From an uncultured Chitinophaga sp. (GTDB lineage: Bacteria > Bacteroidota > Bacteroidia > UKL13-3): a DNA stretch of 63,052 nucleotides. The DNA lies in NCBI GenBank assembly GCA_964545895.1, contig CAZJHS010000007.1, forward strand, positions 1 to 63,052, read 5' to 3'. Every line of letters begins with the position of its first letter. The stretch's first letter is position 1. Position numbers and translations under genes: made by a program. Under the pieces are notes generated by a model. That model searched no databases and had not been told where the DNA came from. It saw nothing but the letters and a program-made list of their open reading frames with translations. Shown here in pieces: positions 4,388-63,052 of the stretch.

Positions 4388-7102
4388 ATGAAAAAGTTCT
4401 TCTTAACATTAGTAGTACTTGTTGCCTTATTACTAATTGCAGCTATTGCCTTACCTATTATTTATAAAAGTAAAATAGTGGCACTTGTTAAAACAGAAAT
4501 TAACAACAACGTAAATGCCACTGTAAACTTTAATGATGATATTGAACTAAGCATTATTAAAAGTTTCCCCAATTTTACGCTTGGCATTAACAACCTTAGT
4601 GTAGTTGGTATTAACGAGTTTGATGGCGATACTCTGGTAGCCATGGATAAGCTAGAAACTGTTATTGATATTATGACAGTGATAAAAGGTGAACCAATAG
4701 GTATTAAAAAAATTGCTTTAGAAACACCACGTATTCATGCGCTTGTGCTTAGCAATGGTAAAGCCAATTGGGATATTGCTAAACCAAGTAACGATTCAAC
4801 AACTGCAACAACAGATACCGCTGCTACCAAGTTTCATGTAAAGCTTAAGAAATTTGAAATTAGCAACGGATTTATTGTGTATGATGACAAGACTATGGGA
4901 GTTAATACCAAACTTGATGGGTTTAATTATGATATGACAGGTGATTTTACTCAAGACGATTTCCTGTTGCAAATAAAATCAACCATAAAACAATGGGATA
5001 TGACTTATGGTGGTGTTAAATACCTAAACAAGGTAAATACCGACATAAATGTTGACATGAATATGAACATGCCCAACATGAAATTTACCTTTAACAACAA
5101 CTCATTTAAGTTAAACGAGCTTACCTTTAATTTTGATGGTTTTGTGCAAATGCTAAATGATGATATTGTAATGGACATTAAATATGATGCGCCAAACAAT
5201 TCGTTTAAAAACTTTTTGTCGCTTGTACCAGGTATGTACACCAAAGATTTTGCTGATTTAAAAACAAGTGGAACTTTAAGTTTTAACGGAACAGCCAAGG
5301 GCACCTACAACGAAAAATCGTTACCTGCATTTAATCTAAATTTATTAGTGGCAAATGCCATGTTTCAACACCCAACTTTACCTGTACCAGTTAAAGATGT
5401 ACAAATTAATTTAAACGTAGCCAATAAAGATGGCAACCTAAATAACACCATTGTAAACTTAAGCAAGTTCCACATGGATATTGCCGGAGATGCTTTTGAC
5501 GCTAAATTAATAGCAAATGATATTATGCAGGACCCACACATTGATTCGTGGTTAAAAGGACGCATAAACTTAGATAACATTTCTAAAATTGTACCTCTTG
5601 AAAACGGCATGGAAATTCACGGAATAATTACTAGTGATGTAACTGCAGTTGGTAAAATTTCGGCTATTGAGAAACAACAATTTGAACAATTTAACGCAAC
5701 CGGACAAATAGCTACACAAAACATTAAGTTTAAATCTGCCGATTTACCAATGGGCTTTAACTCAAACGAAGCACTTTTAGTTTTTAACCCTAAAACAGTA
5801 GCTTTAAAAACATTTGATGCGCAGGTAGGTAAATCAGACTTTAAATTGAACGGTGAAATCAGCAATTTTTTCCCTTATTTATTCAGTAATGGTATTATAC
5901 AAGGAAAGTTAAATTTAACATCAACCCAAATTGATGCCAACCAATTTTTGAGTAACGAACCAGAAACTACTGCACCAAAAGCTGAAGATACAACAGCAAT
6001 GGATGCTCCTGAAATACCTGCCAACATTGATTTTACCTTCACTGGTAATGTTGGAAAATTGCTTTACTCTAATATGGAAATAAGTAATTTTGCAGGTTCG
6101 ATAAAAGTAAAAGACCAGAAGTTAAATTTTGAAAATGTTGCGTTAAATACCTTAGGTGCAGCCATCAAAATGAATGGATTTTACGAAACAACAAATCACC
6201 TAAAACCTACCACCAACATTGATTTTTCTATTGAAAACTTAGACATGCAATTAGCGGCTAAAACATTTAATAGTATTAAAAAAATTGCGCCAATTATTGA
6301 AAAATCACATGGCAGTTTTTCTACCACACTATCATTAGTTACTACCCTTGATAAACATTTAAATCCTGTATACAGCACATTATTTGCCAATGGTATTTGT
6401 AAAATAATGAATGCCGAAATTAAAGACGTAAAAGTATTAGATGAAGTAGCCAAGGCTTTAAAAAATGACAAATACAAAACACTTAACCTCCAAAATGTTA
6501 CTGTAAAATATAAAGTAGAAAATGGCAGGGTTTACACCGAGCCATTTAATGTAGCTGTAGTAGGCAAAACACTTACTTTGGCAGGATCAAGTGGTTTAGA
6601 TCAAACCATAGATTACACAGGTACAACACAAGTACAACGAGGCGAATTAGGTAAAATAAATACAGCCTTAGAAAGCTCGTTAAACAGCTTAAATAACAAA
6701 CTTGGTTCAAACATAACCGCAAGCCAAAACCTAAATATAGGATTAGGCATAAAAGGAACTTTTAGTAAACCAATTATTACAACTAACCTGGCCGATTTAG
6801 CTAAGCAAGAAGCAAACTCATTAAAAGATCAAGCTAAAGCCGAGCTAGAAAAACAAAAGAAATTACTTGAAGATAAAGCAAAAGCTGAAGCCGAAAGATT
6901 GAAACAAGAAGCTCAGGCAAAAGCAAAGTCCGAAATAGATAAAGCCAAACAGCAAGCACAAGCAGAAGCCGATAAACTAAAAGCGGCAGCAGAAAAAGCC
7001 AAAGCAGAAGCCGAGGCCAAAGCCGCAGCAGAAAAAGAAAGGCTTAAAAAACAAGCCGAAGAAGAAGCCAAAAAGAAATTAAAAGGACTGCTAAAACCTT
7101 AA
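4388..7102 (+). CDS. AsmA-family (AsmA-like) envelope protein with Ala/Lys/Glu helical C-tail
   Basis: N-terminal TM anchor, long beta-rich body (FPNFTLGINNLSV), C-terminal GSSGLDQTIDY segment and AKAEAE repeats. Confidence 0.8.
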   Translation: MKKFFLTLVVLVALLLIAAIALPIIYKSKIVALVKTEINNNVNATVNFNDDIELSIIKSFPNFTLGINNLSVVGINEFDGDTLVAMDKLETVIDIMTVIKGEPIGIKKIALETPRIHALVLSNGKANWDIAKPSNDSTTATTDTAATKFHVKLKKFEISNGFIVYDDKTMGVNTKLDGFNYDMTGDFTQDDFLLQIKSTIKQWDMTYGGVKYLNKVNTDINVDMNMNMPNMKFTFNNNSFKLNELTFNFDGFVQMLNDDIVMDIKYDAPNNSFKNFLSLVPGMYTKDFADLKTSGTLSFNGTAKGTYNEKSLPAFNLNLLVANAMFQHPTLPVPVKDVQINLNVANKDGNLNNTIVNLSKFHMDIAGDAFDAKLIANDIMQDPHIDSWLKGRINLDNISKIVPLENGMEIHGIITSDVTAVGKISAIEKQQFEQFNATGQIATQNIKFKSADLPMGFNSNEALLVFNPKTVALKTFDAQVGKSDFKLNGEISNFFPYLFSNGIIQGKLNLTSTQIDANQFLSNEPETTAPKAEDTTAMDAPEIPANIDFTFTGNVGKLLYSNMEISNFAGSIKVKDQKLNFENVALNTLGAAIKMNGFYETTNHLKPTTNIDFSIENLDMQLAAKTFNSIKKIAPIIEKSHGSFSTTLSLVTTLDKHLNPVYSTLFANGICKIMNAEIKDVKVLDEVAKALKNDKYKTLNLQNVTVKYKVENGRVYTEPFNVAVVGKTLTLAGSSGLDQTIDYTGTTQVQRGELGKINTALESSLNSLNNKLGSNITASQNLNIGLGIKGTFSKPIITTNLADLAKQEANSLKDQAKAELEKQKKLLEDKAKAEAERLKQEAQAKAKSEIDKAKQQAQAEADKLKAAAEKAKAEAEAKAAAEKERLKKQAEEEAKKKLKGLLKP

Positions 7103-7157
7103 AACATTTACAGTTCGCAAACGTTTAATAGTACAAATAAGTTATAATAAGTAAAAA

Positions 7158-7652
7158 ATGAAAAAAGCAATATTTGCAGTTCTTACACTTGGATTAGTGT
7201 ACAGCTGCGGCAACTCAACTAAACCAGCAGAAACTGCTAACACAGAAACTACAGCGGCTGCTCCTGCAGAAGCTAAAAGTTATGAATTTACCCTAAATGC
7301 TGTTGGTAATACCATGGCTGATATGGGTTACGACACCAAAGAACTTAAAGTAACTGCGGGTGCAAAAGTAAAAATTAACTTAACCAACCAAGGTACTGAT
7401 GCATCAATGTTACACAATGTGGTTATTGTTAAACAAGGCACAGAAAAAGATGTGGCTACTGAAGGTATTAGCTTAAAAGACAAAAATTACTTCAACGCGG
7501 AGAATACTAATGTTATTGCTGGTTCAGCAGTTGCAGCTCCAGGCGCTACCGTAACTGTTGAGTTTACTGCTCCTGCTGCAGGTACTTATACTTACATCTG
7601 TACATACCCAGGCCATTGGATGAAAATGCAAGGTGTGTTGATTGTAGAATAA
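7158..7652 (+). CDS. Azurin/auracyanin-type blue copper lipoprotein
   Basis: Lipobox LVYSC; type-1 Cu ligands HNVVI and YICTYPGHWMKM. Confidence 0.85.
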   Translation: MKKAIFAVLTLGLVYSCGNSTKPAETANTETTAAAPAEAKSYEFTLNAVGNTMADMGYDTKELKVTAGAKVKINLTNQGTDASMLHNVVIVKQGTEKDVATEGISLKDKNYFNAENTNVIAGSAVAAPGATVTVEFTAPAAGTYTYICTYPGHWMKMQGVLIVE

Positions 7653-7671
7653 GAAAAAAACATTCGACTTA

Positions 7672-7712
7672 AAAGCCGCGTCAAAACTAGTTTTGACGCG
7701 GCTTTATTTTTT
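7672..7712 (+). terminator. Intrinsic terminator formed by a perfect 34-bp palindrome plus T-tract
   Basis: AAAGCCGCGTCAAAACT|AGTTTTGACGCGGCTTT (7672-7705) followed by ATTTTTTT. Confidence 0.85.
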
Positions 7713-7777
7713 TGTAAACTTGTTAAATAATTTTTTTGGAACGGCATTTGCTAAACAACAACCAAATACTTCAAACC

Positions 7778-8371
7778 ATGATAAAAAGAATTTTAATTTT
7801 AGTGCCAGCAATAATTGGCTTATTGGTTACCCAATCTTGTTCTCCTAACAGAAAAGTAACCCGTGTAGACCCTGCTTTACAAACTGATTTAAGCGGGCGT
7901 TGGAATGATAGCGATTCTCGTTTGGTTGCAAACGAAATGATTAATCAAATATTGAGTGCCGCTTGGCGAACAAATTTCGAACAAAAAATGTCGCGTAAAC
8001 CTGTGCTTATCGTTGGTAATATCAAAAACAAAACCTCCGAACAAATAGACCCGGTTACTTTTATTAAAGACTTGGAACGTGCTTGCATAAACTCAACTAC
8101 CGTTTCTATCGTTCAATCGGGTGAAGACCGCAATCAAGTAAGAGAAGAGCGTAACGAACAACAAACTTTCTCGAGTGAAGACACCAAGAAAAAATGGGGT
8201 AAAGAAAAAGGTGCAGATTACATGATTACAGGTGTGATTTCTTCAATTGTTGATTCGTACAAAAATCAACGCACCATTTACTACCAAGTAGATTTGGAAC
8301 TAACCGACTTGGAGTCGAACGAAAAAGTTTGGATTGGTGATAAAAAAATTAAAAAAGTAGTACGTAACTAA
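7778..8371 (+). CDS. lpoB: LpoB-family (penicillin-binding protein activator) lipoprotein
   Basis: ATG 7778, lipobox TQSC; DLSGRWNDSDSRLVA, GADYMITGVISSIVD and YYQVDLELTDLE motifs. Confidence 0.75.
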   Translation: MIKRILILVPAIIGLLVTQSCSPNRKVTRVDPALQTDLSGRWNDSDSRLVANEMINQILSAAWRTNFEQKMSRKPVLIVGNIKNKTSEQIDPVTFIKDLERACINSTTVSIVQSGEDRNQVREERNEQQTFSSEDTKKKWGKEKGADYMITGVISSIVDSYKNQRTIYYQVDLELTDLESNEKVWIGDKKIKKVVRN

Positions 8372-8388
8372 TTGTAAGCAACTTTGCG

Positions 8389-9783
8389 ATGAAGAGTATT
8401 GGGATTGGAATTGCGTTATTGCTTGCTGTACTACTTACGGCCTGCTCTACTTACTATCAAAAAAACTTGGTGGTAATGGATGCCGTATACAAAGGCAATT
8501 ACCAAAACGCTTCCAACCTATTGGATAATAGCAAACTCAAAAAACAAACCCGCAACCAACTGCTTTATTTCCTTCAAAAAGGTACTATTTTATTTATGAA
8601 TAATGAGCATGCTGAAAGCAACAAATACTTTCAGCAGGCTGATTATTTTATTGAAGATTATCAAAAGAATTATTTAACAAAAGCGGCCACTTTTATTACT
8701 AACCCAAGCATTCAAACATACGAGGGAGAGAGTTTTGAAAAGGTGCTTTTGCACTACTACACCACACTAAACTACCTAAAACAAAACAAATTGGATGAGG
8801 CACTAGTGGAGTGTAAACGAATGGAGCTCAAACTTCAAAAAATAACTGATTATTATAAAGGCGAAAACAAGTACAAAAATGATGCTTTTGTGTATTTGCT
8901 TACCGGTATTGTATACGATGCCCAACGCAACTACAATAGTGCATTTATAGCGTACCGTAATGCTTATAATATTTACAAAGAGGTGTATGCTAAAAATTTA
9001 GAAACACCTGCACCTTTGCAATTAAAGCACGACCTAATTAGAACAGCTTTACTTACTGGCTTTACTGCTGAGGCCGAACAATACAAACAAGAGTTTAACC
9101 TTACCAGTTATCAGTTAGATAGTAACTATAAAAACAATGCTGTAATTTTTTGGAACAACGGCTTTGGACCAATTAAAGACCAATGGAGTATTAACTTTAC
9201 TGTATTGCCAGCCGGAAACGGATACGTTAATTTTGTTAATCTAGATTTAGGCTTAAACTTCCCTTACTATGCAGGAAACGACTCAAAATCTATGGTTAAT
9301 TTGAAAATGATACGCGTAGCCTTTCCTAAATATGTTTCGCGCAAACCAACAATTACTGATGCTAAAATAAGTGTTGATAGCCTTGGGGTGAGTGTTGATT
9401 TAAACATGGCAGAGCACGTAGATAAAATAGCCTACGTATCTTTAAAAGACAGAATGGTAAAGGAAGTTGCCGAAGCACTAGTGCGTTTAGCGGTTAAACA
9501 AATTGCTGAAGAAGTAGCTAATACTAAAAATGAGGCATTAGGCAGTACCCTTAGCGTGTTAAACGCCATTACAGAACAGGCTGATACACGTAACTGGCAA
9601 ACTTTACCCTACTCTATTAATTACGGACGGTTACAATTACCTGAAGGAACTTACAGCGCACAGTTTAAATCAAACAATGGAAGTGCACCATTTATATTGG
9701 ATATTAAAAGTAATCAAACCACTTTTAAAATCATACAATCACCCTACTTTGATGGGTATTCGGACCAGGTAGGCTCGTTTTAA
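8389..9783 (+). CDS. COG3014-like TPR lipoprotein
   Basis: Lipobox LTAC; YEGESFEKVLLHYY and ADTRNWQTLP motifs; adjacent to lpoB. Confidence 0.7.
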   Translation: MKSIGIGIALLLAVLLTACSTYYQKNLVVMDAVYKGNYQNASNLLDNSKLKKQTRNQLLYFLQKGTILFMNNEHAESNKYFQQADYFIEDYQKNYLTKAATFITNPSIQTYEGESFEKVLLHYYTTLNYLKQNKLDEALVECKRMELKLQKITDYYKGENKYKNDAFVYLLTGIVYDAQRNYNSAFIAYRNAYNIYKEVYAKNLETPAPLQLKHDLIRTALLTGFTAEAEQYKQEFNLTSYQLDSNYKNNAVIFWNNGFGPIKDQWSINFTVLPAGNGYVNFVNLDLGLNFPYYAGNDSKSMVNLKMIRVAFPKYVSRKPTITDAKISVDSLGVSVDLNMAEHVDKIAYVSLKDRMVKEVAEALVRLAVKQIAEEVANTKNEALGSTLSVLNAITEQADTRNWQTLPYSINYGRLQLPEGTYSAQFKSNNGSAPFILDIKSNQTTFKIIQSPYFDGYSDQVGSF

Positions 9784-9793
9784 AAACACATAA

Positions 9794-9829
9794 AAAAAGC
9801 CGCCCGAAACAAGTTCGGGACGGCTTTTT
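9794..9829. terminator. Bidirectional terminator between convergent genes
   Basis: AAAAAGCCGCCCGAA-acaag-TTCGGG(A)CGGCTTTTT. Confidence 0.8.
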
Positions 9830-9846
9830 ATTTATAATTTAAGCTA

Positions 9847-10806
9847 CTATGCTTTAAGCTTTTTTGCAGCTTCTAATATTTTAGGCAATACTTCAAAAGC
9901 ATCACCAACAATACCATAATCGGCAGCTTTAAAAAATGGAGCTTCTGGATCTTTATTAATAGCTACAATTACTTTGCTTGAACTTACTCCAGCTAAATGT
10001 TGAATTGCTCCACTAATACCAATGGCTATGTATAAGTTTGGTTTAATGGTAATACCCGTTTGACCAACGTGCTCGCTATGTGGACGCCAGTGCATATCAC
10101 TAACTGGCTTTGAACAAGCTGTTGCAGCACCTAATACATTGGCTAATTCTTCAATGATACCCCAATGCTCAGGACCTTTCATTCCGCGACCAGCACTTAC
10201 TACCAACTCAGCTTCAGTTAATGGAATTTTACCAGTAACACGCGAAACTTCAATTGGGTTTGAAATAAAATCAGCATCAGTTAATCCTCCATCAGCCATT
10301 TCAATTGCAGCAGTTTTATTAAACTCTTGCACATCAAAAGTATTAGGTGTTAATGCCAATACTTTAACTGCAGTTGTTAAACTTACATCAGAAAATGCTT
10401 TACCACTAAATACAGTTTTGCGAACCACAAAACCGTTTGCAGTATTAGGTGTTGAAATAACTCCTGATGCTACACCTGCTTTTAATTTTGCAGCTACTCT
10501 ACCTGCAATTGATTTACCAGTATAAGTATTACTCATCACTACCACTGAAGCAGATGAAGCAATATTTGCTAAAGCCTTAGCATAAGCTTCGGCTACAAAT
10601 TGATTTAACTTATCAGATTTTACAGATACAACTTTATCTGCACCAAACTTACCTAACTCAGCAAGTTTGCTATCATCAACATTGCCAATACTAACGGCAA
10701 CACAAGGCACACCGTTATTTTGAGCTATACCTGCAGCATAAGATACTGCTTCAAAGGTTGATTTTTTGAAATTACCGTCTATACTTTCTGCGTATACTAC
10801 TATCAT
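9847..10806 (-). CDS. etfA: Electron transfer flavoprotein alpha subunit
   Basis: VVSAGRG, HVGQTG, LYIAIGISGAIQHLAG, NKDPEAPFF. Confidence 0.95.
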   Translation of the reverse strand: MIVVYAESIDGNFKKSTFEAVSYAAGIAQNNGVPCVAVSIGNVDDSKLAELGKFGADKVVSVKSDKLNQFVAEAYAKALANIASSASVVVMSNTYTGKSIAGRVAAKLKAGVASGVISTPNTANGFVVRKTVFSGKAFSDVSLTTAVKVLALTPNTFDVQEFNKTAAIEMADGGLTDADFISNPIEVSRVTGKIPLTEAELVVSAGRGMKGPEHWGIIEELANVLGAATACSKPVSDMHWRPHSEHVGQTGITIKPNLYIAIGISGAIQHLAGVSSSKVIVAINKDPEAPFFKAADYGIVGDAFEVLPKILEAAKKLKA

Positions 10807-10825
10807 AATTCGTTAATTTTAATGA

Positions 10826-11563
10826 TTAGATTACTTTGGCTTCGTTGTGTAATAAGTCAATTAATTGTGCGGCATCTTCTGCTGGAATTAGCTTAACGCC
10901 ACCTTTAGCAGCAGGCATTTCAAAACCAATTGTTGATGCTGTTTTTTCGCCACCGGCTACTTCAACCACTTTTAATGGCTTAGTACGTGCAGCCATAATA
11001 CCACGCATGTTCGGAATACGAGGTTCTGTTAACTCTTTTTGAGCACTAGCTACCAAAGGTAATTTGCAGCTAACTTTTTCTTTTCCACCATCAATATCAC
11101 GTTCCATGGTAGCAATACCACCATCAACATCAATACTTGTTACCACATTAACAGAAGGTATTCCTAACATTTCTGCTAATAAAGTACAAACCAAACCTCC
11201 ATTGTAATCAATAGACTCGCGACCAGTTAAGATTAAATCAAATCCTTCTGTTTTTGCATAATGAGCAATTTGCTCAGCTACAAAATAAGCATCGGTAGGC
11301 TCTGCATTTACGCGCACAGCATCTGTAGCACCAATGGCAAGCGCTTTACGTATACTTGGTTCAGCATCGGCCAAACCTACGTTAATTGCGGTTACAGTAC
11401 CACCCTGTTTCTCGGTAATTTCGAGTGCACGGGTTAGCGCTAGCTCATCATAGGGGTTAATAATAAATTGTACACCTGTAGTATTAAACTTAGTGTTATT
11501 GTCGGTAAATGTTACCTTCGTTGTTGTGTCGGGAACATTGCTGATACAAACTAAAATTTTCAT
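10826..11563 (-). CDS. etfB: Electron transfer flavoprotein beta subunit
   Basis: ATG 11563 MKILVCISNVPDT; INPYDELAL, LILTGRESID, PRIPNMRGIM. Confidence 0.95.
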   Translation of the reverse strand: MKILVCISNVPDTTTKVTFTDNNTKFNTTGVQFIINPYDELALTRALEITEKQGGTVTAINVGLADAEPSIRKALAIGATDAVRVNAEPTDAYFVAEQIAHYAKTEGFDLILTGRESIDYNGGLVCTLLAEMLGIPSVNVVTSIDVDGGIATMERDIDGGKEKVSCKLPLVASAQKELTEPRIPNMRGIMAARTKPLKVVEVAGGEKTASTIGFEMPAAKGGVKLIPAEDAAQLIDLLHNEAKVI

Positions 11564-11588
11564 ATTTTTACTTCGTTGTAAAGTGCAG

Positions 11589-11596
11589 CAAAAGTA
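11589..11596 (-). promoter_or_regulatory. Bacteroidota -7 promoter box for etfBA
   Basis: TACTTTTG (TAnnTTTG) on the minus strand, about 25 nt upstream of the etfB ATG. Confidence 0.65.
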
Positions 11597-11617
11597 ACCA
11601 AAAATTGGTTTTAACAA

Positions 11618-11935
11618 ATGGCAAATATTAGATTAGAAAAACTAACCGAAATGCTTAATAAACAGCCCAATGACGCTTTTTTGCATTATGCGGTTGCCAT
11701 GGAGCATTTAGGATTAAACAATCCTAACCTTGCCCAAGAGTGGTTTAGTAAGGTGTTGGTTTTAGAACCAAAGAATATTGCTACGCATTACCAACTTGGT
11801 ATGTTATTGCATCAAAAAGGTGACGAAAAAGGTGCTATTACCTTGCTTGAAAAAGGTGAAGCTTTAGCAAGAGCTAATGGCGATTTAAAAACTGCCAACG
11901 AGTTTAAAACAGCAATCGAAGAAATTATTTATTAA
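11618..11935 (+). CDS. Small TPR protein
   Basis: PNDAFLHYAVAMEH and ATHYQLGMLL helical repeats. Confidence 0.75.
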   Translation: MANIRLEKLTEMLNKQPNDAFLHYAVAMEHLGLNNPNLAQEWFSKVLVLEPKNIATHYQLGMLLHQKGDEKGAITLLEKGEALARANGDLKTANEFKTAIEEIIY

Positions 11936-11938
11936 CTG

Positions 11939-13321
11939 CTACTGTTCTACTTTAAGCAACTCATTTAATAACCTCGGAAATATTCCTTTGGCTAATTGTT
12001 GCTCGGCTGTTTTATAGGCATCTAAGCCTGCGGTTTCTGGTGTGGTTTGAAATCCTTTTAAATCTTGCAATCCATCTTTAAATATCTCAGCATTGTTTTT
12101 ATTATCAACCAAACTAACCCAAAGATTTAACGCCACGCTTTGCATGTTACCCCATATTATACCAAGGCCTTTAGTATTCGCAGTAAGCCTTAAAATATAA
12201 TCAGCTTCTTCTTTACTACTTACAAAATTGCAACCTGCGTTAACTAGGTTTTTCTTTAAGTAAGTTTCTAAAGGATGCATGTTCATTTTTTGCGATAAAT
12301 TTTGCTCGTCAGTTTCGATGTACATTTTTATTGGAGCAACACTTACTCGTATGGAAGTACCTGGCTCATCAATATTTTTAAGCACATTTTGCAAGGCAAA
12401 ATTTACACTATCTGTTTTTATAATACCCTGCACATCGGCACTTAATCTGATAAGTTGAATAGGATCACGCGCTAATATACGTGCCACACTAAACGAAGCT
12501 ATGCCCTGCTGATCGGTTTGTGTTTGAGCTCCAAAATCCATTTTACCTTGCTCTACATTCATTTTCATGGGCAAATACTGAACGCCTAACTTTCCGGCCA
12601 AAGTATCAGCAAAAAAAACATGTACATCAAACGGATGCTGAATAGGTTTGCCAACCTTACCCATTAAACTTAACGATTTACTTTGTACAGTAATTTTATA
12701 CAATTGAGATTGAATTGAAGATATAATCTCGTTAACCAAATACACATTTTTACCCTTATAATCACTTTGCAAATCTTCGTTTAAATACTCTTGCAATGTG
12801 GCAAGGGCTTTTAACTTTAACCTAAGTATTTGTACATAGTTATTGGTTAAATTCAACTCATCAGCTCGCGCCAAATAATCCTCGGCTCTGTTAATGGCAC
12901 TTTGCATGCGTTTCCTACGCATCTCAGCGTATTGAGCTTTGCTTAAGCGCATATAAATCCAAAAGTAATCGGCATTTTCCCAACTATCTACTACCTCATA
13001 ATTTTCAATTTCATTAAGCGCAGTAATCTTAACCTGACTCTCAAATTGCTGTTTAAATTCTGCATTATTCTGCAACGATTGAAGTACCGAGTTTGATGAA
13101 ACTGTTACTTTAATTTCTGAAATTAAATCATTAAGTGCTTCCTTTTTAGCAGCCTGTTGATACGATTGGGTGCTATTAGCTTTTGGCGCAATGCCTACCC
13201 CAACGTAATACGATTCGTTTACTGGCCTTTGGCTAACCCAGCTTGGCTTTTTATTAGCACGATGCGAAGCGCAAGCAGTAACCATAAGAAGCAAAATAGT
13301 TATATAAGGAAGCTTTTTCAC
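11939..13321 (-). CDS. LPP20-family lipoprotein
   Basis: GTG start, lipobox VTAC; KPSWV...YYVGVG...AKKEALNDLISEIKVTVSS pattern. Confidence 0.7.
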   Translation of the reverse strand: MKKLPYITILLLMVTACASHRANKKPSWVSQRPVNESYYVGVGIAPKANSTQSYQQAAKKEALNDLISEIKVTVSSNSVLQSLQNNAEFKQQFESQVKITALNEIENYEVVDSWENADYFWIYMRLSKAQYAEMRRKRMQSAINRAEDYLARADELNLTNNYVQILRLKLKALATLQEYLNEDLQSDYKGKNVYLVNEIISSIQSQLYKITVQSKSLSLMGKVGKPIQHPFDVHVFFADTLAGKLGVQYLPMKMNVEQGKMDFGAQTQTDQQGIASFSVARILARDPIQLIRLSADVQGIIKTDSVNFALQNVLKNIDEPGTSIRVSVAPIKMYIETDEQNLSQKMNMHPLETYLKKNLVNAGCNFVSSKEEADYILRLTANTKGLGIIWGNMQSVALNLWVSLVDNKNNAEIFKDGLQDLKGFQTTPETAGLDAYKTAEQQLAKGIFPRLLNELLKVEQ

Positions 13322-57033: not shown

Positions 57034-57565
57034 CTCTCACAGAAAACACAGAAGTCACAGACTTTGTTATCTTGCAACTAAAATCCTAGACATGAATATT
57101 AATGACATCTCTTACCTCATCAGAGGTGCTGCATTTGAAGTTTTCAAAACGCTCGGCCCCGGGCTTCTGGAAAGTGTTTATGAAAAAGCATTAGTCTTTG
57201 AACTCGTCTCAAAGAATTTACATGTGCAAACCCAAGTTGGTATTCCAGTAGTGTACAAGGGGCATGATTTAGATCTTGGATTTAGAATGGATATATTAGT
57301 TGAGGATAAAGTTATTATCGAAGTTAAGTCAGTTGAACTATTGCACGATGTGCATAGGAAACAAGTGTTGACTTATCTGAAATTAGCGGATAAAAAACTA
57401 GGTATACTTATCAATTTCAACACAGATAGTTTATTAGATAAAGAAAGTTTGATTAGAATCATTAACTAATTCTGTGACTTCTGTGTTTTCAGGGAGCCAC
57501 TATAAGATATCATCCAACTTAGTCTTACAAAAACTTCTGTGCTTTCTGTGCTTTCTGTGAGCCAC
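57034..57565 (+). mobile_element. Candidate GxxExxY element bounded by inverted 9-bp-period CACAGA arrays
   Basis: GAAAACACAGAAGTCACAGA (57042-57061) is the exact reverse complement of 57471-57490; a second right array lies at 57535-57565. Confidence 0.65.
57092..57469 (+). CDS. GxxExxY protein (PD-(D/E)xK nuclease-like)
   Basis: GLLESVY motif; RMDILVEDKVIIEVKS; QVLTYL; GILINF. Confidence 0.93.
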   Translation: MNINDISYLIRGAAFEVFKTLGPGLLESVYEKALVFELVSKNLHVQTQVGIPVVYKGHDLDLGFRMDILVEDKVIIEVKSVELLHDVHRKQVLTYLKLADKKLGILINFNTDSLLDKESLIRIIN

Positions 57566-59470: not shown

Positions 59471-59923
59471 ATGTCGAAAACCTTTTTTACCAGCGAGCAG
59501 CAAACGCAAATCATCGAATCTATAAGACTGGCTGAGCTAAATACCAGCGGAGAAATTCGTGTACATATTGAAGCCAATTGTGATGGAGATGCCTACGAGC
59601 GTGCCAAAACAGTTTTTGAACAATTAGGCATGCATGCTACCGAACAAAAAAATGGCGTACTTTTTTACTTGGCCTACGCGCACAAAAAGTTTGCTATTTT
59701 GGGTGATAAAGGAATACATGAAAAGGTTTCGCAACAATTTTGGGATACAGAAAAAGAGTTGCTGTTATCTTATTTTAAACAAGAAAAATTTGCTGAAGGT
59801 TTGTGCTTAGCCATTGCGCAAGCGGGCGAAAAGTTAAAACAACATTTCCCTTACCAAAGCAACGACACCAACGAATTAAGCAACGATATATCTTTTGGTA
59901 GTGAAGGAGCAACACATGAATAA
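59471..59923 (+). CDS. TPM-domain protein
   Basis: AELNTSGEIRVHIE, NGVLFYL, DTNELSN. Confidence 0.88.
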   Translation: MSKTFFTSEQQTQIIESIRLAELNTSGEIRVHIEANCDGDAYERAKTVFEQLGMHATEQKNGVLFYLAYAHKKFAILGDKGIHEKVSQQFWDTEKELLLSYFKQEKFAEGLCLAIAQAGEKLKQHFPYQSNDTNELSNDISFGSEGATHE

Positions 59924-60677
59924 TCAATGTATTTTAAAACACACCTTTAGGTTGATTAGCCTAACGGCACTCCTATTTTTTACTGCAGTTGCTGGCTTTG
60001 CAAAAGATATTCCTGCAAAATCAAACAAGTTGGTTAATGATTATGTCGGTGCTTTAAGTGCATCGGAAGTAAATGCACTTGAAACCAAACTAAGCGGTTA
60101 TTATGATACCACATCAACCCAAATTGCAATTGTTATTGAAAACAGTTTGGAGGGTGATGATTTATTTGATTACTGCCAACGATTAGCAACAGCTTGGGGC
60201 ATTGGTGAAAAAGGCAAAAACAATGGGGTGTTAATTTATGTGGTGTTAAGCGATAGAAAAGCGAGAATACATACGGGTTATGGTATGGAAGCTACTATTA
60301 CTGATGCCATGAGTACGCGTATTAGAACGCAACAAATGAACCCTGCATTTAAGTCGGGCAACTATTACCAAGGACTTGATGAAGCCACTACAACCATAAT
60401 GCAATTGGCTAGTGGCGAATATGTAAACGACAAGGATGAACCGATGAAAAAAGGGCCATCCATGTTTGTTATTTTTATAGTTATCATTATTGCTATTGTT
60501 TTATTTAGCCGTGGTGGTGGTGGAAGAGGAAACCGCAGCCGTGGTGGTTTTGGTGGACCAATATTTTGGGGAGGAACCTTTGGCAGTGGTGGCTTTTCGG
60601 GAGGCAGCAGTGGCGGTGGTTTTGGCGGCTTTGGAGGCGGTGGATTTGGTGGTGGCGGAAGCGGTGGCAGTTGGTAG
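59916..60677 (+). CDS. TPM-domain protein with Gly-rich tail (YgcG-like)
   Basis: VNDYVG, TQIAIV, WGIGEKGKNNGVL, TGYGME, GGGFGGGGSGGSW; ATG 59916. Confidence 0.9.
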   Translation: MNNQCILKHTFRLISLTALLFFTAVAGFAKDIPAKSNKLVNDYVGALSASEVNALETKLSGYYDTTSTQIAIVIENSLEGDDLFDYCQRLATAWGIGEKGKNNGVLIYVVLSDRKARIHTGYGMEATITDAMSTRIRTQQMNPAFKSGNYYQGLDEATTTIMQLASGEYVNDKDEPMKKGPSMFVIFIVIIIAIVLFSRGGGGRGNRSRGGFGGPIFWGGTFGSGGFSGGSSGGGFGGFGGGGFGGGGSGGSW

Positions 60678-60682
60678 GAAGA

Positions 60683-61125
60683 GAGTTATGAATGTTGAGT
60701 GTTGAGTTATGATTTGCGTTTAGTTAAGAGTTTCTCACAGAAGGCACAGAAAATCACAGAAGAGCTATGGCCAAAAGCTAATAGCAAACGGCTAAAGACT
60801 ACGTTATGAATGATGAATTGCTATTAGCCGTTGGCTTTTAGCAAGATAAGAGAAGTGGAATGACGAATTTTAAAGTAATGCTTTTGCTTAGCCACTTACA
60901 ATACTTTAGGATGATGGGGAGAATCGTAAACTTATTTCAGGCCAATACATTCTACCACCCCGCCCGGTGGGCACCCCTCCTGCTAGGAGGGGAACGTATA
61001 CTCCCGAAAATTTACTTGTACCAAAATTTTATTTCATAAAGTAGTTTTTCATGTTGTAGTGTTGTGCCGAAATCACTTCGGCACTGTCATGTAAAGCCTT
61101 GGCGTAGGTATGACTGAGGGGGGGG
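60683..61125. repeat. Second intergenic repeat/REP mosaic
   Basis: GARTKWT 7-mers (60683-60710), CACAGA x3 (60736, 60745, 60755), inverted GCYAAnn 7-mer arrays (60770-60797 / 60818-60844), CCCCTCCT-gct-AGGAGGGG (60974-60992), GTGCCGAA-atcac-TTCGGCAC (61064-61084). Confidence 0.75.
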
Positions 61126-61174
61126 AATCTTAAACTTTTTTAAGATGATACAATAAACTATGCGTTTAATACTT

Positions 61175-61328
61175 GTAATTATCCATTTAAAGCATTTATT
61201 TAGTTGAAGCAACCATTAACAACATGAAACACAAAAGCCCAAACACCACCCCAATTTACACGCATGTAGGCACCGAGCAATTGGGTAAAATAGCTAGCCC
61301 ATTGGATAAATTAAAATTAAATAAATAA
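61175..61328 (+). pseudogene. Relic of a tyrosine recombinase/integrase C-terminus
   Basis: 61224-61328 reads MKHKSPNTTPIYTHVGTEQLGKIASPLDKLKLNK*, matching the GHxSxxTTxIYTHV...KIxSPLD tail. VIIHLKHLF at 61175-61201, in another frame, weakly resembles HxLRHSF. Confidence 0.7.
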
Positions 61329-61363
61329 AAAAATATTGTGCCACTACATCACCGCAATTTATC

Positions 61364-61437
61364 GCACATAATATTCCAATTAAGGCAATATTGTGCAATA
61401 AACAGGAAGAACAGTCGCACAGATAAGTAAGTTATGG
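61364..61437 (+). other. attC/attI-like site 1
   Basis: 61391-61437 is 40/47 identical to 62187-62233 and ends in GTTATGG, a GTTRRRY-like core. Confidence 0.55.
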
Positions 61438-61479
61438 AGCAATTGTAACACAGACAAGTGCCATAAAAAAATCTGAAAA

Positions 61480-62178
61480 ATGGAAATAACTACAACTGAA
61501 AAATGGAATGACATTTTGAAAAAAGCAGAATCGGATGACGCCACTGCTCAATTCGAAGTTGCGACTGTTTACAATGAAGGGCTAATTATTGACAATCAAG
61601 AAATAGTACAGATGAATCTTGAAAGTGCTTTCAATTGGACAAAGAAGGCTTTTCAGAATGGAAATAAAGAAGCTAAAATTCAATATGCACACTTCTTGAC
61701 AGACAGAACAAACCCTCTTGGGGTTCTTGACATTGAGTTAGGTATGAAATTGTATGAGGAGGAAATGAACAATGGAGACAAATATGTTACTTATTGCTTA
61801 GGACTTGAATATAGGAACAGACAAGAATTTGAAAAAGCTTTTGACCATTATGAAAAAGCAAATAGAAATGAAGAATTCTATCAAGAATTGACTATAGGTA
61901 TGTGCTATTATTACGGGGTCGGTGTAACAAAAAACAAATTGAGGGCATTAGAAATTTTCAAATCAATTGCCTTACCAAACGTGACACCTTATGAGGTTGA
62001 CGAGGCAAATTATATGATTGGGAAAATTTACTTAGAAGGTGAAGTTATTAAAAAAGATATTGACAAAGCACGATTTCATTTAGAGTTAGCCGACAAAGAC
62101 GGTGACCATAGAAGCGCACAAGAAATATTAATAATAATTGGCAGGACAACTAAAAATGAAAAGAACACCAGCCACTAA
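61480..62178 (+). CDS. Sel1-like repeat protein (putative cassette cargo)
   Basis: AQFEVATVYNEG, AFNWTKKA, IGMCYYYGVGVTKNKLRALEIF, ANYMIGKIYLEG. Confidence 0.85.
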   Translation: MEITTTEKWNDILKKAESDDATAQFEVATVYNEGLIIDNQEIVQMNLESAFNWTKKAFQNGNKEAKIQYAHFLTDRTNPLGVLDIELGMKLYEEEMNNGDKYVTYCLGLEYRNRQEFEKAFDHYEKANRNEEFYQELTIGMCYYYGVGVTKNKLRALEIFKSIALPNVTPYEVDEANYMIGKIYLEGEVIKKDIDKARFHLELADKDGDHRSAQEILIIIGRTTKNEKNTSH

Positions 62179-62233
62179 AAGCAACCTTGCGCAATAAACG
62201 TAAAAATCAGTTGCACAGATAAGTAAGTTATGG
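62171..62233 (+). other. attC-like site 2 (about 60 bp)
   Basis: GCCACTAAA (contains the upstream stop) - TTGCGCAA - loop - TTGCACAG - ATAAGTAA - GTTATGG. Confidence 0.6.
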
Positions 62234-62796
62234 GTTACTTTATGACGACACGACATTTCATACAAACATGTATCATTTTGACAACCTTGACAGCGTTTCA
62301 AGTTATGCCAAACAAGGTAGTTCTTCGTGGACAACTTATTGCTTGGGACAAAGAATCTCCAAAACAGTTCGTAGGACTTACAGCAATAATAAAAGGTGAC
62401 GGACAATTTCTTACACAAACAACCATAGACACATCTGGACAATTTATTTTAACGTTTCCAACATCACAATACAAGACATTTGACGTGTTTGTTACTGGCA
62501 TTGGAATTGATACAAGTTTCATAGAGACATTTACTGCTTTTAAAACCGACACCATTTCCGACAAATTTATTTTTCCAAAGATGTTAGAGTTTCAAATCTT
62601 CAGATGTCCAAGATGTAAACACGGAGACAAAGCATACGACATCGTTTATGGGGACAAGCAAAAAATAACAATGAAAGTTGTAAAAGGCGACACGATTTAT
62701 AGCAACATTGTGGACAGAAAATATTACGCAGGGACTTGTGTTCAGAGCAAACTTTCACCACACTTTTACTGCGACAGATGTAAAATAAAATGGTAA
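62230..62796 (+). CDS. Secreted hypothetical protein with C-terminal Cys cluster (true start may be ATG 62242)
   Basis: Signal-like N-terminus; CPRCKH ... AGTC ... CDRC. Confidence 0.7.
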   Translation: MGYFMTTRHFIQTCIILTTLTAFQVMPNKVVLRGQLIAWDKESPKQFVGLTAIIKGDGQFLTQTTIDTSGQFILTFPTSQYKTFDVFVTGIGIDTSFIETFTAFKTDTISDKFIFPKMLEFQIFRCPRCKHGDKAYDIVYGDKQKITMKVVKGDTIYSNIVDRKYYAGTCVQSKLSPHFYCDRCKIKW

Positions 62797-62812
62797 CGGT
62801 TCGAGAGGATAG

Positions 62813-62848
62813 AAAAGCAACCGCTAACTCGGGTAGCTGTTGCACAAC
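62813..62848 (+). other. Truncated attC-like site 3
   Basis: AAAAGCAACCGCTAAC-TCGGGTAGCTG-TTGCACAAC, 16 nt after the stop; shares AAAAGCAACC and TTGCACA with site 2 but lacks the GTT core. Confidence 0.4.
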
Positions 62849-62997
62849 TCTGTTTTAAAAAACAAAGCACACTTTTTCATGCGTTAATTGCCCTGATATT
62901 TTTTTGAGCTACATTTTTAAGGCTGAAAAATTGGGTGGCACTTAACACGCGCAGTGGCTGCGTGAACCAAGGCTTAGTTTGAAACCTACAAAACCCC

Positions 62998-63025
62998 AAA
63001 CTAAGAACTAAGAACTGAAAACTAA
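62998..63025. repeat. 7-mer tandem array
   Basis: AAACTAA GAACTAA GAACTGA AAACTAA; reverse-complement family of 50403-50437. Confidence 0.7.
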
Positions 63026-63052
63026 GTACTCTCCCCGCCCCCTACATTCTGA

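Follow-up and report, generated by a model that had tools for sequence, protein, structure and literature searches.

A probable decayed integron-like gene-capture platform, with the tail of a XerA-like recombinase, in a Bacteroidota genome

Close to one end of a 63,052-nucleotide (nt) stretch of DNA from an uncultured Chitinophaga sp. (contig CAZJHS010000007.1 of assembly GCA_964545895.1; called the window here, meaning the whole stretch that was analysed), two unrelated genes stand one behind the other, each directly preceded by the same 21 nt, GCACAGATAAGTAAGTTATGG. What kind of element placed them there? An original prediction, made from the letters alone, took the locus (61391-62848) for a decayed integron-like array of gene cassettes with a non-canonical family of attC, the type of recombination site in which a cassette ends. 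We find that the locus is probably what is left, after decay, of a platform for integron-like gene capture, of a kind that is common in Bacteroidota; this rests on the tail of a recombinase gene, a folded recombination site, and the turnover of cargo genes in relatives. What is non-canonical is the recombinase and the hairpin-shaped site next to its gene, whereas attC itself is canonical. Neither the recombinase tail nor the hairpin that contains the first repeat copy had been mentioned in the prediction. The features of the locus are listed below; L and P numbers in the text denote loci and proteins used for comparison.

61189-61229, + strand: leader of a truncated module lineage, ~40 nt, missing from full-length integrase genes.
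61224-61328, + strand: remnant of a tyrosine recombinase gene, its last 34 codons (MKHKSPNTTPIYTHVGTEQLGKIASPLDKLKLNK, then stop).
61333-61437, + strand: site 1, a ~105-nt two-tier hairpin with a putative attI-like role; repeat copy 1 is its 3' half.
61432-62227, + strand: cassette 1, with the gene for a Sel1-repeat protein at 61480-62178.
62172-62233, + strand: site 2, a partial copy of site 1 at the junction of cassettes 1 and 2.
62228-62883, + strand: cassette 2, with the gene for a 188-amino acid protein (ORF2; start at 62230 or 62242, end at 62796).
62822-62889, + strand: site 3, a putative decayed attC, with R'' CGCTAAC at 62822-62828 and R' G|TTAATT at 62883-62889.

The 21-mer occurs exactly twice in the window, both times on the + strand (61417-61437 and 62213-62233), as first reported; no further match with up to three mismatches was found in the 63 kb, and none in 100 shuffles. 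The two copies lie within the predicted 47-nt block (40/47 positions identical), and the repeat stretches leftwards from there to 62 nt (61376-61437 and 62172-62233, 50/62 identical). On the right, similarity breaks off directly after GTTATGG, where copy 1 continues with AGCAATTG and copy 2 with GTTACTTT. One + strand open reading frame (ORF) follows directly after each copy. Copy 2 has the make-up that had been ascribed to it: it is ~60 bp long, carries the stop codon TAA of the upstream Sel1 gene (62176-62178) in its left end (CCACTAAAAGC), and contains an inner inverted pair, TTGCGCAA/TTGCACAG. The repeat does not behave like a dispersed element of the repetitive extragenic palindromic or miniature inverted-repeat transposable type, there being two copies in the 63 kb (at up to three mismatches) and one per locus in relatives. 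In blastn searches with the site, that single copy always stood behind the tail of a recombinase gene.

The window has such a tail as well. The 34 codons at 61224-61328 include the catalytic-tyrosine motif IYTHV and an SPLD tail, and 61230-61307 matches residues 331-356 of L041 and 349-374 of L042, integrases of 358-380 amino acids from metagenomes, at 85-88% identity. The mini-ORF recurs in L008, in L040 (P0001), and as P0003 and P0006; a search of a protein database with the 34-amino acid tail gave one match. These C-terminal codons are all that is kept of the integrase gene, as no further remnant was found with three full-length relatives by tblastn over the whole 63 kb or by tblastn and blastn over 60000-63052. 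Similarity to the counterparts in L040 and L131 begins at 61189, while similarity to the full-length genes of L121, L124, L125, and L070 begins sharply at 61230. The intervening ~40-nt leader is shared by all truncated copies that reach far enough and is missing from full-length genes, which argues for one truncated lineage. Leader, tail, and hairpin together make up a module of ~250 nt.

The hairpin, site 1, has an outer stem (61337-61345 with 61413-61421), then a large internal loop, and an inner stem (61358-61377 with 61384-61402). Its core, GTTATGG, is at 61431-61437, and the crossover is placed provisionally at G61431|T61432, from the position at which related loci diverge. The 47-mer corresponds to the inner-right arm, spacer, outer-right arm, and core of this hairpin. 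The bottom strand of site 1 folds with a free energy (dG) of -13.6 and a z-score (z) of -3.0 to -3.2, equalled by 0 of 200 shuffles. Homologous sites fold on the bottom strand too (z of -7.7 in L040, -5.7 in L121, -4.9 in L124, -4.0 in L129, -3.6 in L125, and -3.0 in L132), as do sites of a second subfamily (-3.5 in L070 and -5.1 in L109). The letters of the stems differ from locus to locus while the sites of these eight other loci still fold. The counterpart in L008 is decayed (z -1.6). Folding was judged for each sequence against its shuffles, because RNAalifold on a MAFFT alignment of the hairpin sites misaligned the inner arms and missed the two-tier structure. A scan for AAC...GTT hairpins also returned 61406-61573, which we take as a chance hit. 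It rests on a perfect 10-bp inverted repeat, AACAGTCGCA/TGCGACTGTT, between the outer-right arm of the hairpin (61410-61419) and the Sel1 ORF (61557-61566), likewise treated as chance.

What lies behind the hairpin changes from locus to locus. With the TPM protein as anchor of synteny in species-representative genomes, the sole syntenic locus that has both the flanks of the window and the module is L008, from a metagenome-assembled genome of an uncultured Chitinophaga-like organism, which shares the left flank, the tail remnant, the hairpin, and the right flank at 91-92% identity. Between the shared flanks, L008 carries four ORFs unrelated to Sel1 and ORF2, and the left homology ends within GATAAGTA(A/T)..TTA. 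A 150-nt palindrome in L008 (5880-6016) was considered and set aside as its folding is marginal (z -1.1 and -1.6). The module also recurs behind transketolase genes (L040, L129, L130, and L131, of which L040, L129, and L131 are at a transketolase–era locus) and at a further site (L132). L129 and L131 encode an identical mini-ORF product (P0003), yet different gene sets come right after GTTATG, and L040, at the same locus, has a third. On this comparison, homology between loci ends at AAG|TTA in the window, L008, L040, L129, L131, and L132, as would be expected of a primary insertion site; breakpoints at the same core appear between L121 and L122 and among L133, L134, and L135. The GTT at the right end of the repeat, proposed as the crossover core, thus coincides with comparative breakpoints at G|TT in more than 10 loci.

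In full-length relatives, the integrase gene, the hairpin, and attC-bounded cassettes occur together. One full-length integrase, P0018, is found as an identical protein that, together with its hairpin, forms a discrete unit of ~1.3 kb in different contexts, with the right break exactly at CAAG|TTA. In integrons, an attC is an imperfect palindrome of 57-150 nt, with R'' RYYYAAC and R' GTTRRRY, that can fold as a single strand. The cassettes of relatives end in canonical attC sites (RYYYAAC ... GTTRRRY) of 68-157 nt. In L121, such a site is at 10197-10339 (GCCTAAC...AACGTTAGCA), and the cassette that ends there is absent from L122. The attC of L131 (1685-1820) folds with z -3.9; L129 has attC-type sites at 6470-6600 and 7303-7382, L070 has three, and L109 has two. 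The R' sequence GTTATGG recurs in attC sites and integrase-proximal sites of relatives (L070, L109, and L113). Past its first attC-bounded cassette, L121 (9212-13215) has ~10 tightly packed small ORFs with no detectable attC between them; these ORFs may belong to one large cassette or to a mobile element of another kind. Sequences resembling attC also occur upstream of full-length integrase genes (L122 3449-3519, L123 369-430, and L070 1-24 and 570-600), and in L070 a cassette too lies upstream of the integrase; the integrase-and-hairpin unit may for this reason itself insert like a cassette.

A further integrase of the same family, P0133, is present as an identical protein on at least 125 Flavobacteriales contigs, on a conjugative-element backbone with ParA, MobC, and relaxase genes. 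In L133-L137, its gene is at 6001-7035 and is followed by arrays at 7105-13035. These arrays are variable and carry Tet(X)-like, Erm-like, Sul-like, adenylyltransferase, acetyltransferase, OXA-like, metallo-beta-lactamase, and other genes, and the sequence common to them ends at GAG|TT (L133, L134, and L135). The hairpin scan found two to four attC sites of 131-157 nt per array. Erm-like and DUF6934 cassettes occur in opposite order in L134 and L135. Cassette content varies between the window and L008, among L129, L131, and L040, and between L121 and L122; between L134 and L135, it is the order that differs.

The two cargo genes of the window are absent from L008, and the view that they are foreign single-gene cargo holds. 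The Sel1-repeat protein has 232 amino acids (Pfam Sel1, E = 1.8e-16). The ORF2 protein has a hydrophobic N-terminus and two CxxC pairs near its C-terminus, and matches no Pfam family; cassette 2 is identical on three short Logan contigs. Promoter and terminator scans were at chance level: there is no excess of sigma-70-type promoters, and the Bacteroidetes motif TAnnTTTG does not occur on the + strand of 60650-63052. This is weak evidence that the cargo genes are without promoters of their own.

The codon usage of the cargo sets it apart. The impression that this DNA is rich in GAC and ACA is strongly confirmed for GAC, which makes up 3.3% of coding-strand trinucleotides in the cargo as compared with a window median of 0.29%, or ~10-fold over the host. 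Aspartate is encoded by GAC 24 times and by GAT 3 times in the cargo, as compared with 58 and 248 times in ten host ORFs. In the host (1-60677 of the window), GAC/GTC is the most depleted trinucleotide, with an observed/expected ratio of 0.31. The enrichment is limited to the coding strand, and GTC remains rare in the cargo (61438-62796). Five related loci (L008, L121, L124, L129, and L131), whose flanks range from 37 to 48% G+C, show the same pattern: GAC is at 1.5-4.6% in their cargo, with GTC at only 0.14-0.45% and flanks at 0.33-0.56%. The pattern supports a foreign, shared pool of cassettes. A difference in G+C content was also considered, and there is none (0.34-0.36 in the cargo and 0.365 in the host, with equal G+C at third codon positions); the real contrast lies in GAC and codon usage.

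Site 2, between the two cassettes, is a truncated site 1. It retains the loop, inner-right arm, spacer, outer-right arm, and GTTATGG, lacks both left arms, and folds no better than shuffles on either strand (top, z +0.7 to +0.85; bottom, z -0.6 to -0.75). It agrees with site 1 unevenly, at 21/21 positions of the 3' end and at ~71% (29/41) further left, and its spacer is nearer to site 1 of L008 than to the window's own; both findings speak against a duplication that took place here recently. As judged from its letters, site 2 resembles ΔattI-type cassette ends, in which an ORF is followed by a shortened integrase-proximal site with the core of the full site at its end. Most likely it arose by aberrant or unequal exchange between two copies of an integrase-proximal site, an origin that we infer from one case, as no counterpart turned up in the other arrays examined.

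Cassette 2 ends differently, in site 3. This site, together with downstream sequence, is 80% identical over 116 nt to the attC-type site at 7303-7382 of the L129 array, in which R'' and R' (GGCTATAAC/GTTTATAGCC) pair and the top strand folds with z -2.1. It also matches a site at the contig end of L131, and L008 keeps just its right part. Site 3 itself has lost the ability to fold (z about 0). It has the attC layout and the homology to L129, and we read it as the probable decayed attC of cassette 2; ends of this kind are intact in relatives. The span first marked out for the locus had taken in the first 27 nt of this site (62822-62848) without naming it an attC. A constrained scan for AAC...GTT hairpins gave no convincing canonical attC in the window or in L008.

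The recombinase family to which the tail belongs is not that of classical integrons. Full-length relatives have 345-380 amino acids, with Phage_int_SAM_4, Phage_integrase, and MrpR_C_cat domains and ~90 extra residues at the N-terminus. Their best NCBIfam model is NF040815 (site-specific tyrosine recombinase/integron integrase, XerA-type; 219-230 bits), and the integron integrase model TIGR02249 matches in two pieces with 181-197 bits, below its cut-off of 265. The closest solved structures are archaeal XerA (5HXY) and an archaeal XerC-like recombinase (4A8E). Aligned with VchIntIA (2A3V), the full-length relatives match in two separate pieces, and nothing in them corresponds to residues 205-245 of IntI4. 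This insertion defines IntI, which is reported to need it for activity (PMC9668308, citing Messier and Roy; PMC8138268). At E <= 1e-30, a protein database yields at least 7,988 members, which makes for a large family. In a search of metagenomes, most matches were ordinary Xer proteins of ~280 amino acids and were set aside. Given that the nearest relative of the family is XerA and that the IntI-specific insertion is missing, we consider the platform an analogue of integrons and not a member. In function and architecture it is an integron, and two defining features are missing: an intact integrase gene at the locus and the IntI insertion in the family.

How would such a platform work? Intact relatives have a gene for a XerA/XerC/XerD-like recombinase and, behind it on the same strand, a recombination site, which in this lineage is the ~105-nt two-tier hairpin ending in ...AAG|TTRRRY. 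At G|TT stand apparently promoter-less cassettes that end in attC hairpins. The recombinase would bind the stems of the folded primary site and of the attCs, and insert and excise cassettes at G|TT. Established integron biology includes both a crossover at G|TT of R' and the use of a folded attC strand as substrate (PMC8618304, PMC9668308). By analogy, the exchanges would be catalysed by the recombinase family described here, a role assigned from its association with these sites since the IntI insertion is lacking. Orphan modules such as that of the window may be acted on in trans, by the product of a full-length gene at another place in the genome. With a weakened hairpin, an unfoldable site 2, and a decayed attC, the array of the window is probably now inert or nearly so.

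Several observations weigh against this explanation. The recombinase family is without the insertion that IntI needs to act on attC. Neither Sel1 nor ORF2 was found in any other array examined, and site 2 has no counterpart there, the blastn matches of the site being integrase-proximal only. The hairpin scan of 60600-63052 returned no convincing attC, so that site 3 is assigned by homology only. Finally, recombination itself was not observed, and the three Logan contigs are the same as the window and thus offer no polymorphism for this array; the change in cassette order that the prediction had proposed to look for is found between L134 and L135 and not within the window's own population.

The alternative that fares best, although still rather doubtful, concerns only where the module came from and is compatible with the decayed platform. 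The ~250-nt module could be a non-autonomous mobile unit, a miniature derivative of an integrase cassette, that moved into the junction between the TPM-domain and ABC-transporter genes, possibly together with cargo, and not the leftover of an integrase gene that decayed on the spot. A single breakpoint shared by the truncated copies (61229/61230) and the 40-nt leader imply a single origin, yet the module is present at three or more chromosomal loci. The full-length integrase with its hairpin is itself a discrete unit of ~1.3 kb in varied contexts, and L070 has cassette-like sequence upstream of the integrase as well. However, the left boundary is without a recognisable core site, and the 510 nt upstream are common to L008 alone. 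With few loci at hand, vertical inheritance with rearrangement could also account for the distribution.

It is unlikely that site 2 came about by an ordinary duplication or by homologous recombination (for example through slippage in replication, or through unequal crossing-over at short homologies), without function or a link to site-specific recombination. A single such junction is known, its left arms are missing, and the array shows no polymorphism, all of which would suit such an origin. On the other hand, the right end of the copy coincides to the base with the core GTTATGG, where all loci diverge, and neither the uneven identity nor the L008-like spacer suits a recent local copy. Moreover, integron integrases have been documented both to generate and to recombine ΔattI-type ends (PMC12901181).

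Could the 47-mer still be a new, non-canonical family of attC, one copy of which closes each cassette and recombines in the form of a folded bottom strand? In favor of this, the repeat is direct, both copies end in GTTATGG ahead of one ORF each, and the stop codon of cassette 1 lies inside copy 2. Against this, copy 1 is half of a larger hairpin that is present in the 3' flank of the integrase gene in every relative. Copy 2 folds on neither strand. Relatives of the motif do occur elsewhere at the head of variable sets of genes, but as a delimiter of cassettes it does not: L008, L129, L131, L132, and L121 have it once, at the array head, and their cassettes end in canonical attCs. Even in the window, cassette 2 ends in a different site of canonical type. 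We consider the non-canonical attC family very unlikely.

That the shared sequence is a 5' regulatory element of two co-regulated genes (a promoter, leader, or riboswitch-like RNA) is extremely improbable: both copies stand directly upstream of an ORF and the ATG of GTTATGG in copy 2 is in frame with ORF2, but the ATG of copy 1 starts just a 4-codon ORF, the locus has no Rfam match at the gathering threshold or at E <= 1, no promoter consensus exceeds chance, and in seven other loci the element goes together with the tail of a recombinase gene and with a turnover of cargo.

The decayed platform can be compared with several known systems. As in class 1 and Vibrio chromosomal integrons, a tyrosine recombinase stands beside a primary site, with the crossover at G|TT of GTTRRRY; cassettes hold single, co-oriented, promoter-less-looking genes; and in relatives they have attC ends, variable content, and shuffled order. 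Unlike in those integrons, the recombinase is closest to XerA, lacks the IntI insertion, and has a ~90-amino acid extra N-terminal region; its gene is co-oriented with the cassettes, with an attC-like hairpin as the site 3' of the gene; and in the window that gene is down to 34 codons. In archaeal integrons, attI is immediately downstream of intI (PMC9668308), where the present family has its primary site. Typical Spirochaetota IntIs are generally in reverse orientation (PMC9668308). The integrases of archaeal and reverse integrons are reported to keep the IntI-specific additional domain (PMC9668308), whereas the present family is without it.

The order attI, gene, ΔattI of ΔattI-type cassettes (PMC12901181) is also the look of 61333-62233. 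In class 1 and 2 integrons, these ends are recombination-proficient (PMC12901181). They involve attI1 or attI2 with IntI1 and have been shown to be functional (PMC12901181); here, the hairpin belongs to another family and there is one example, known from sequence alone. Arrays without a functional integrase nearby are also seen in clusters of attC sites lacking integron-integrases (CALIN; PMC9024848). CALIN elements require at least two attC sites by the covariance model of IntegronFinder and no integrase within 4 kb; the window, in contrast, has one recognisable decayed attC-type site and an integrase remnant with a site of its own.

Xer/dif modules (integrative mobile elements exploiting Xer, IMEX; Acinetobacter pdif) likewise have a Xer-like recombinase and genes bracketed by its sites. 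Sites of the dif type are duplexes of ~28 bp, with two 11-bp arms and a 6-8-bp spacer, whereas the sites here are hairpins of 70-150 nt, with a GTT core in direct orientation and integron-like breakpoints. The arms of site 1 are 16-20 nt apart and pair with distant partners in the ~105-nt hairpin. No dif-like site was seen by eye, without a dif model being run.

Parts of this system may have been met before in resistance loci. In Riemerella anatipestifer, a 2026 study notes that a resistance gene moves with a 140-bp attC-like 3' structure although an integron is not detected (PMC13148043). From Chryseobacterium and Empedobacter, an unexplained 'XerD' is described beside tet(X), catB, and aadS (PMC11194056, PMC7473080). 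The arrays of L133-L137 combine both features, attC-like gene ends and a 'XerD' beside resistance genes, with an integrase of the window's family. In the portions of these three reports available to us, no recombinase or platform is named and no mechanism is given for XerD (PMC13148043, PMC11194056, PMC7473080). As compared with those loci, the window is an environmental, resistance-free, and decayed relative. Surveys with IntegronFinder list for Bacteroidetes proper only In0 elements and one complete integron, in Salinibacter ruber (PMC9024848). In the open-access literature, we came across no publication that brings together this recombinase family, the site next to its gene, and attC cassettes, although an earlier description is possible.

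Taken together, these comparisons suggest a broader reading, which we put forward tentatively and judge to have slightly less in its favor than against it: that Bacteroidota harbor a widespread and active analogue of integrons. In it, a XerA-like recombinase without the IntI insertion and with an N-terminal domain of its own would capture ordinary attC cassettes. The primary site would be 3' of the recombinase gene and, in environmental lineages, would be a two-tier hairpin, and truncated modules of tail and hairpin would act as orphan docking sites for a recombinase supplied in trans. The arrays of Flavobacteriales conjugative elements, with their Tet(X)-like, Erm-like, Sul-like, metallo-beta-lactamase, and other genes, would be assembled by this system too, and its cassette pool would carry a strand-specific GAC bias. 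If this holds, the 'XerD' next to tet(X) and the attC-like tails in Riemerella would be explained.

Integrons are defined and searched for through IntI and its insertion, and surveys of this kind list hardly any from Bacteroidetes (PMC9024848). Starting from the window, one arrives at a large, insertion-less recombinase family, members of which head arrays with canonical attC sites and G|TT breakpoints. If this family is the catalyst, cassette capture on folded attC DNA would not require the IntI insertion, integron surveys would undercount a whole phylum, and there would be a concrete, testable mechanism by which resistance genes, those of the tet(X) type among them, move in Flavobacteriales. 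The window would represent the end state of such a platform, with an orphan site, a ΔattI-like junction, and a decaying attC.

The surroundings of the array comprise two further features.

60678-61188, strand not assigned: non-coding spacer between the TPM-domain gene and the module; whether it is part of the element is uncertain.
62884-63041, + strand: ORF-less tail of the array, reaching the convergent ABC-transporter ATPase gene.

The left neighbor of the element is a TPM-domain gene (59895-60677). On the right, L001, one of the three Logan contigs identical to the window, runs 220 nt past the window end and shows a convergent ATP-binding cassette (ABC) transporter ATPase gene on the minus strand with its stop at ~63042, so that the element is bounded by these two genes. 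The same junction is empty in L014, L015, and L017 and holds unrelated genes in others, which argues that the element is an insertion. Across the clade (L004-L021), the junction is a variable spot: it is occupied by three conserved lipoprotein-like genes in L004 and L007, and by 5-8 kb of other genes in L011 (UKL13-3) and L021. Part of the array tail (62884-62939) is conserved in L008 and, behind the homologous attC, in L129. Downstream of the L129 array (8200-8770), there are four tandem units of ~100-200 nt that look like degenerate 3' copies of an adjacent minus-strand tRNA-like sequence and could be a stack of old attachment-site remnants.

The spacer at 60678-61188 is 91% identical to that of L008, no other syntenic locus matches it, and neither integrase homology (tblastn or blastn) nor an Rfam match was found in it. 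It contains a 25-nt direct repeat (60916-60940 and 61120-61144, 204 nt apart) and two G+C-rich hairpins, CCCCTCCTGCTAGGAGGGG and GTGCCGAAATCACTTCGGCAC. The spacers upstream of other modules are likewise repeat-rich and non-homologous; that of L040 (4560-4720) has three tandem units of ~60 nt. The short sequence AAGCAACC has three + strand copies within 1.6 kb (61207, 62179, and 62815), each beside a cassette-like boundary, and six occurrences in the whole window on both strands; it is probably a chance feature, as it is not conserved in other modules. Further upstream, 57092-57469 encodes a 125-amino acid protein of the PD-(D/E)XK nuclease superfamily (Pfam PDDEXK_3, E = 3.6e-41), which we take to be of the GxxExxY type common in Bacteroidota. 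Short repeats of the CACAGAAG type come after this gene.

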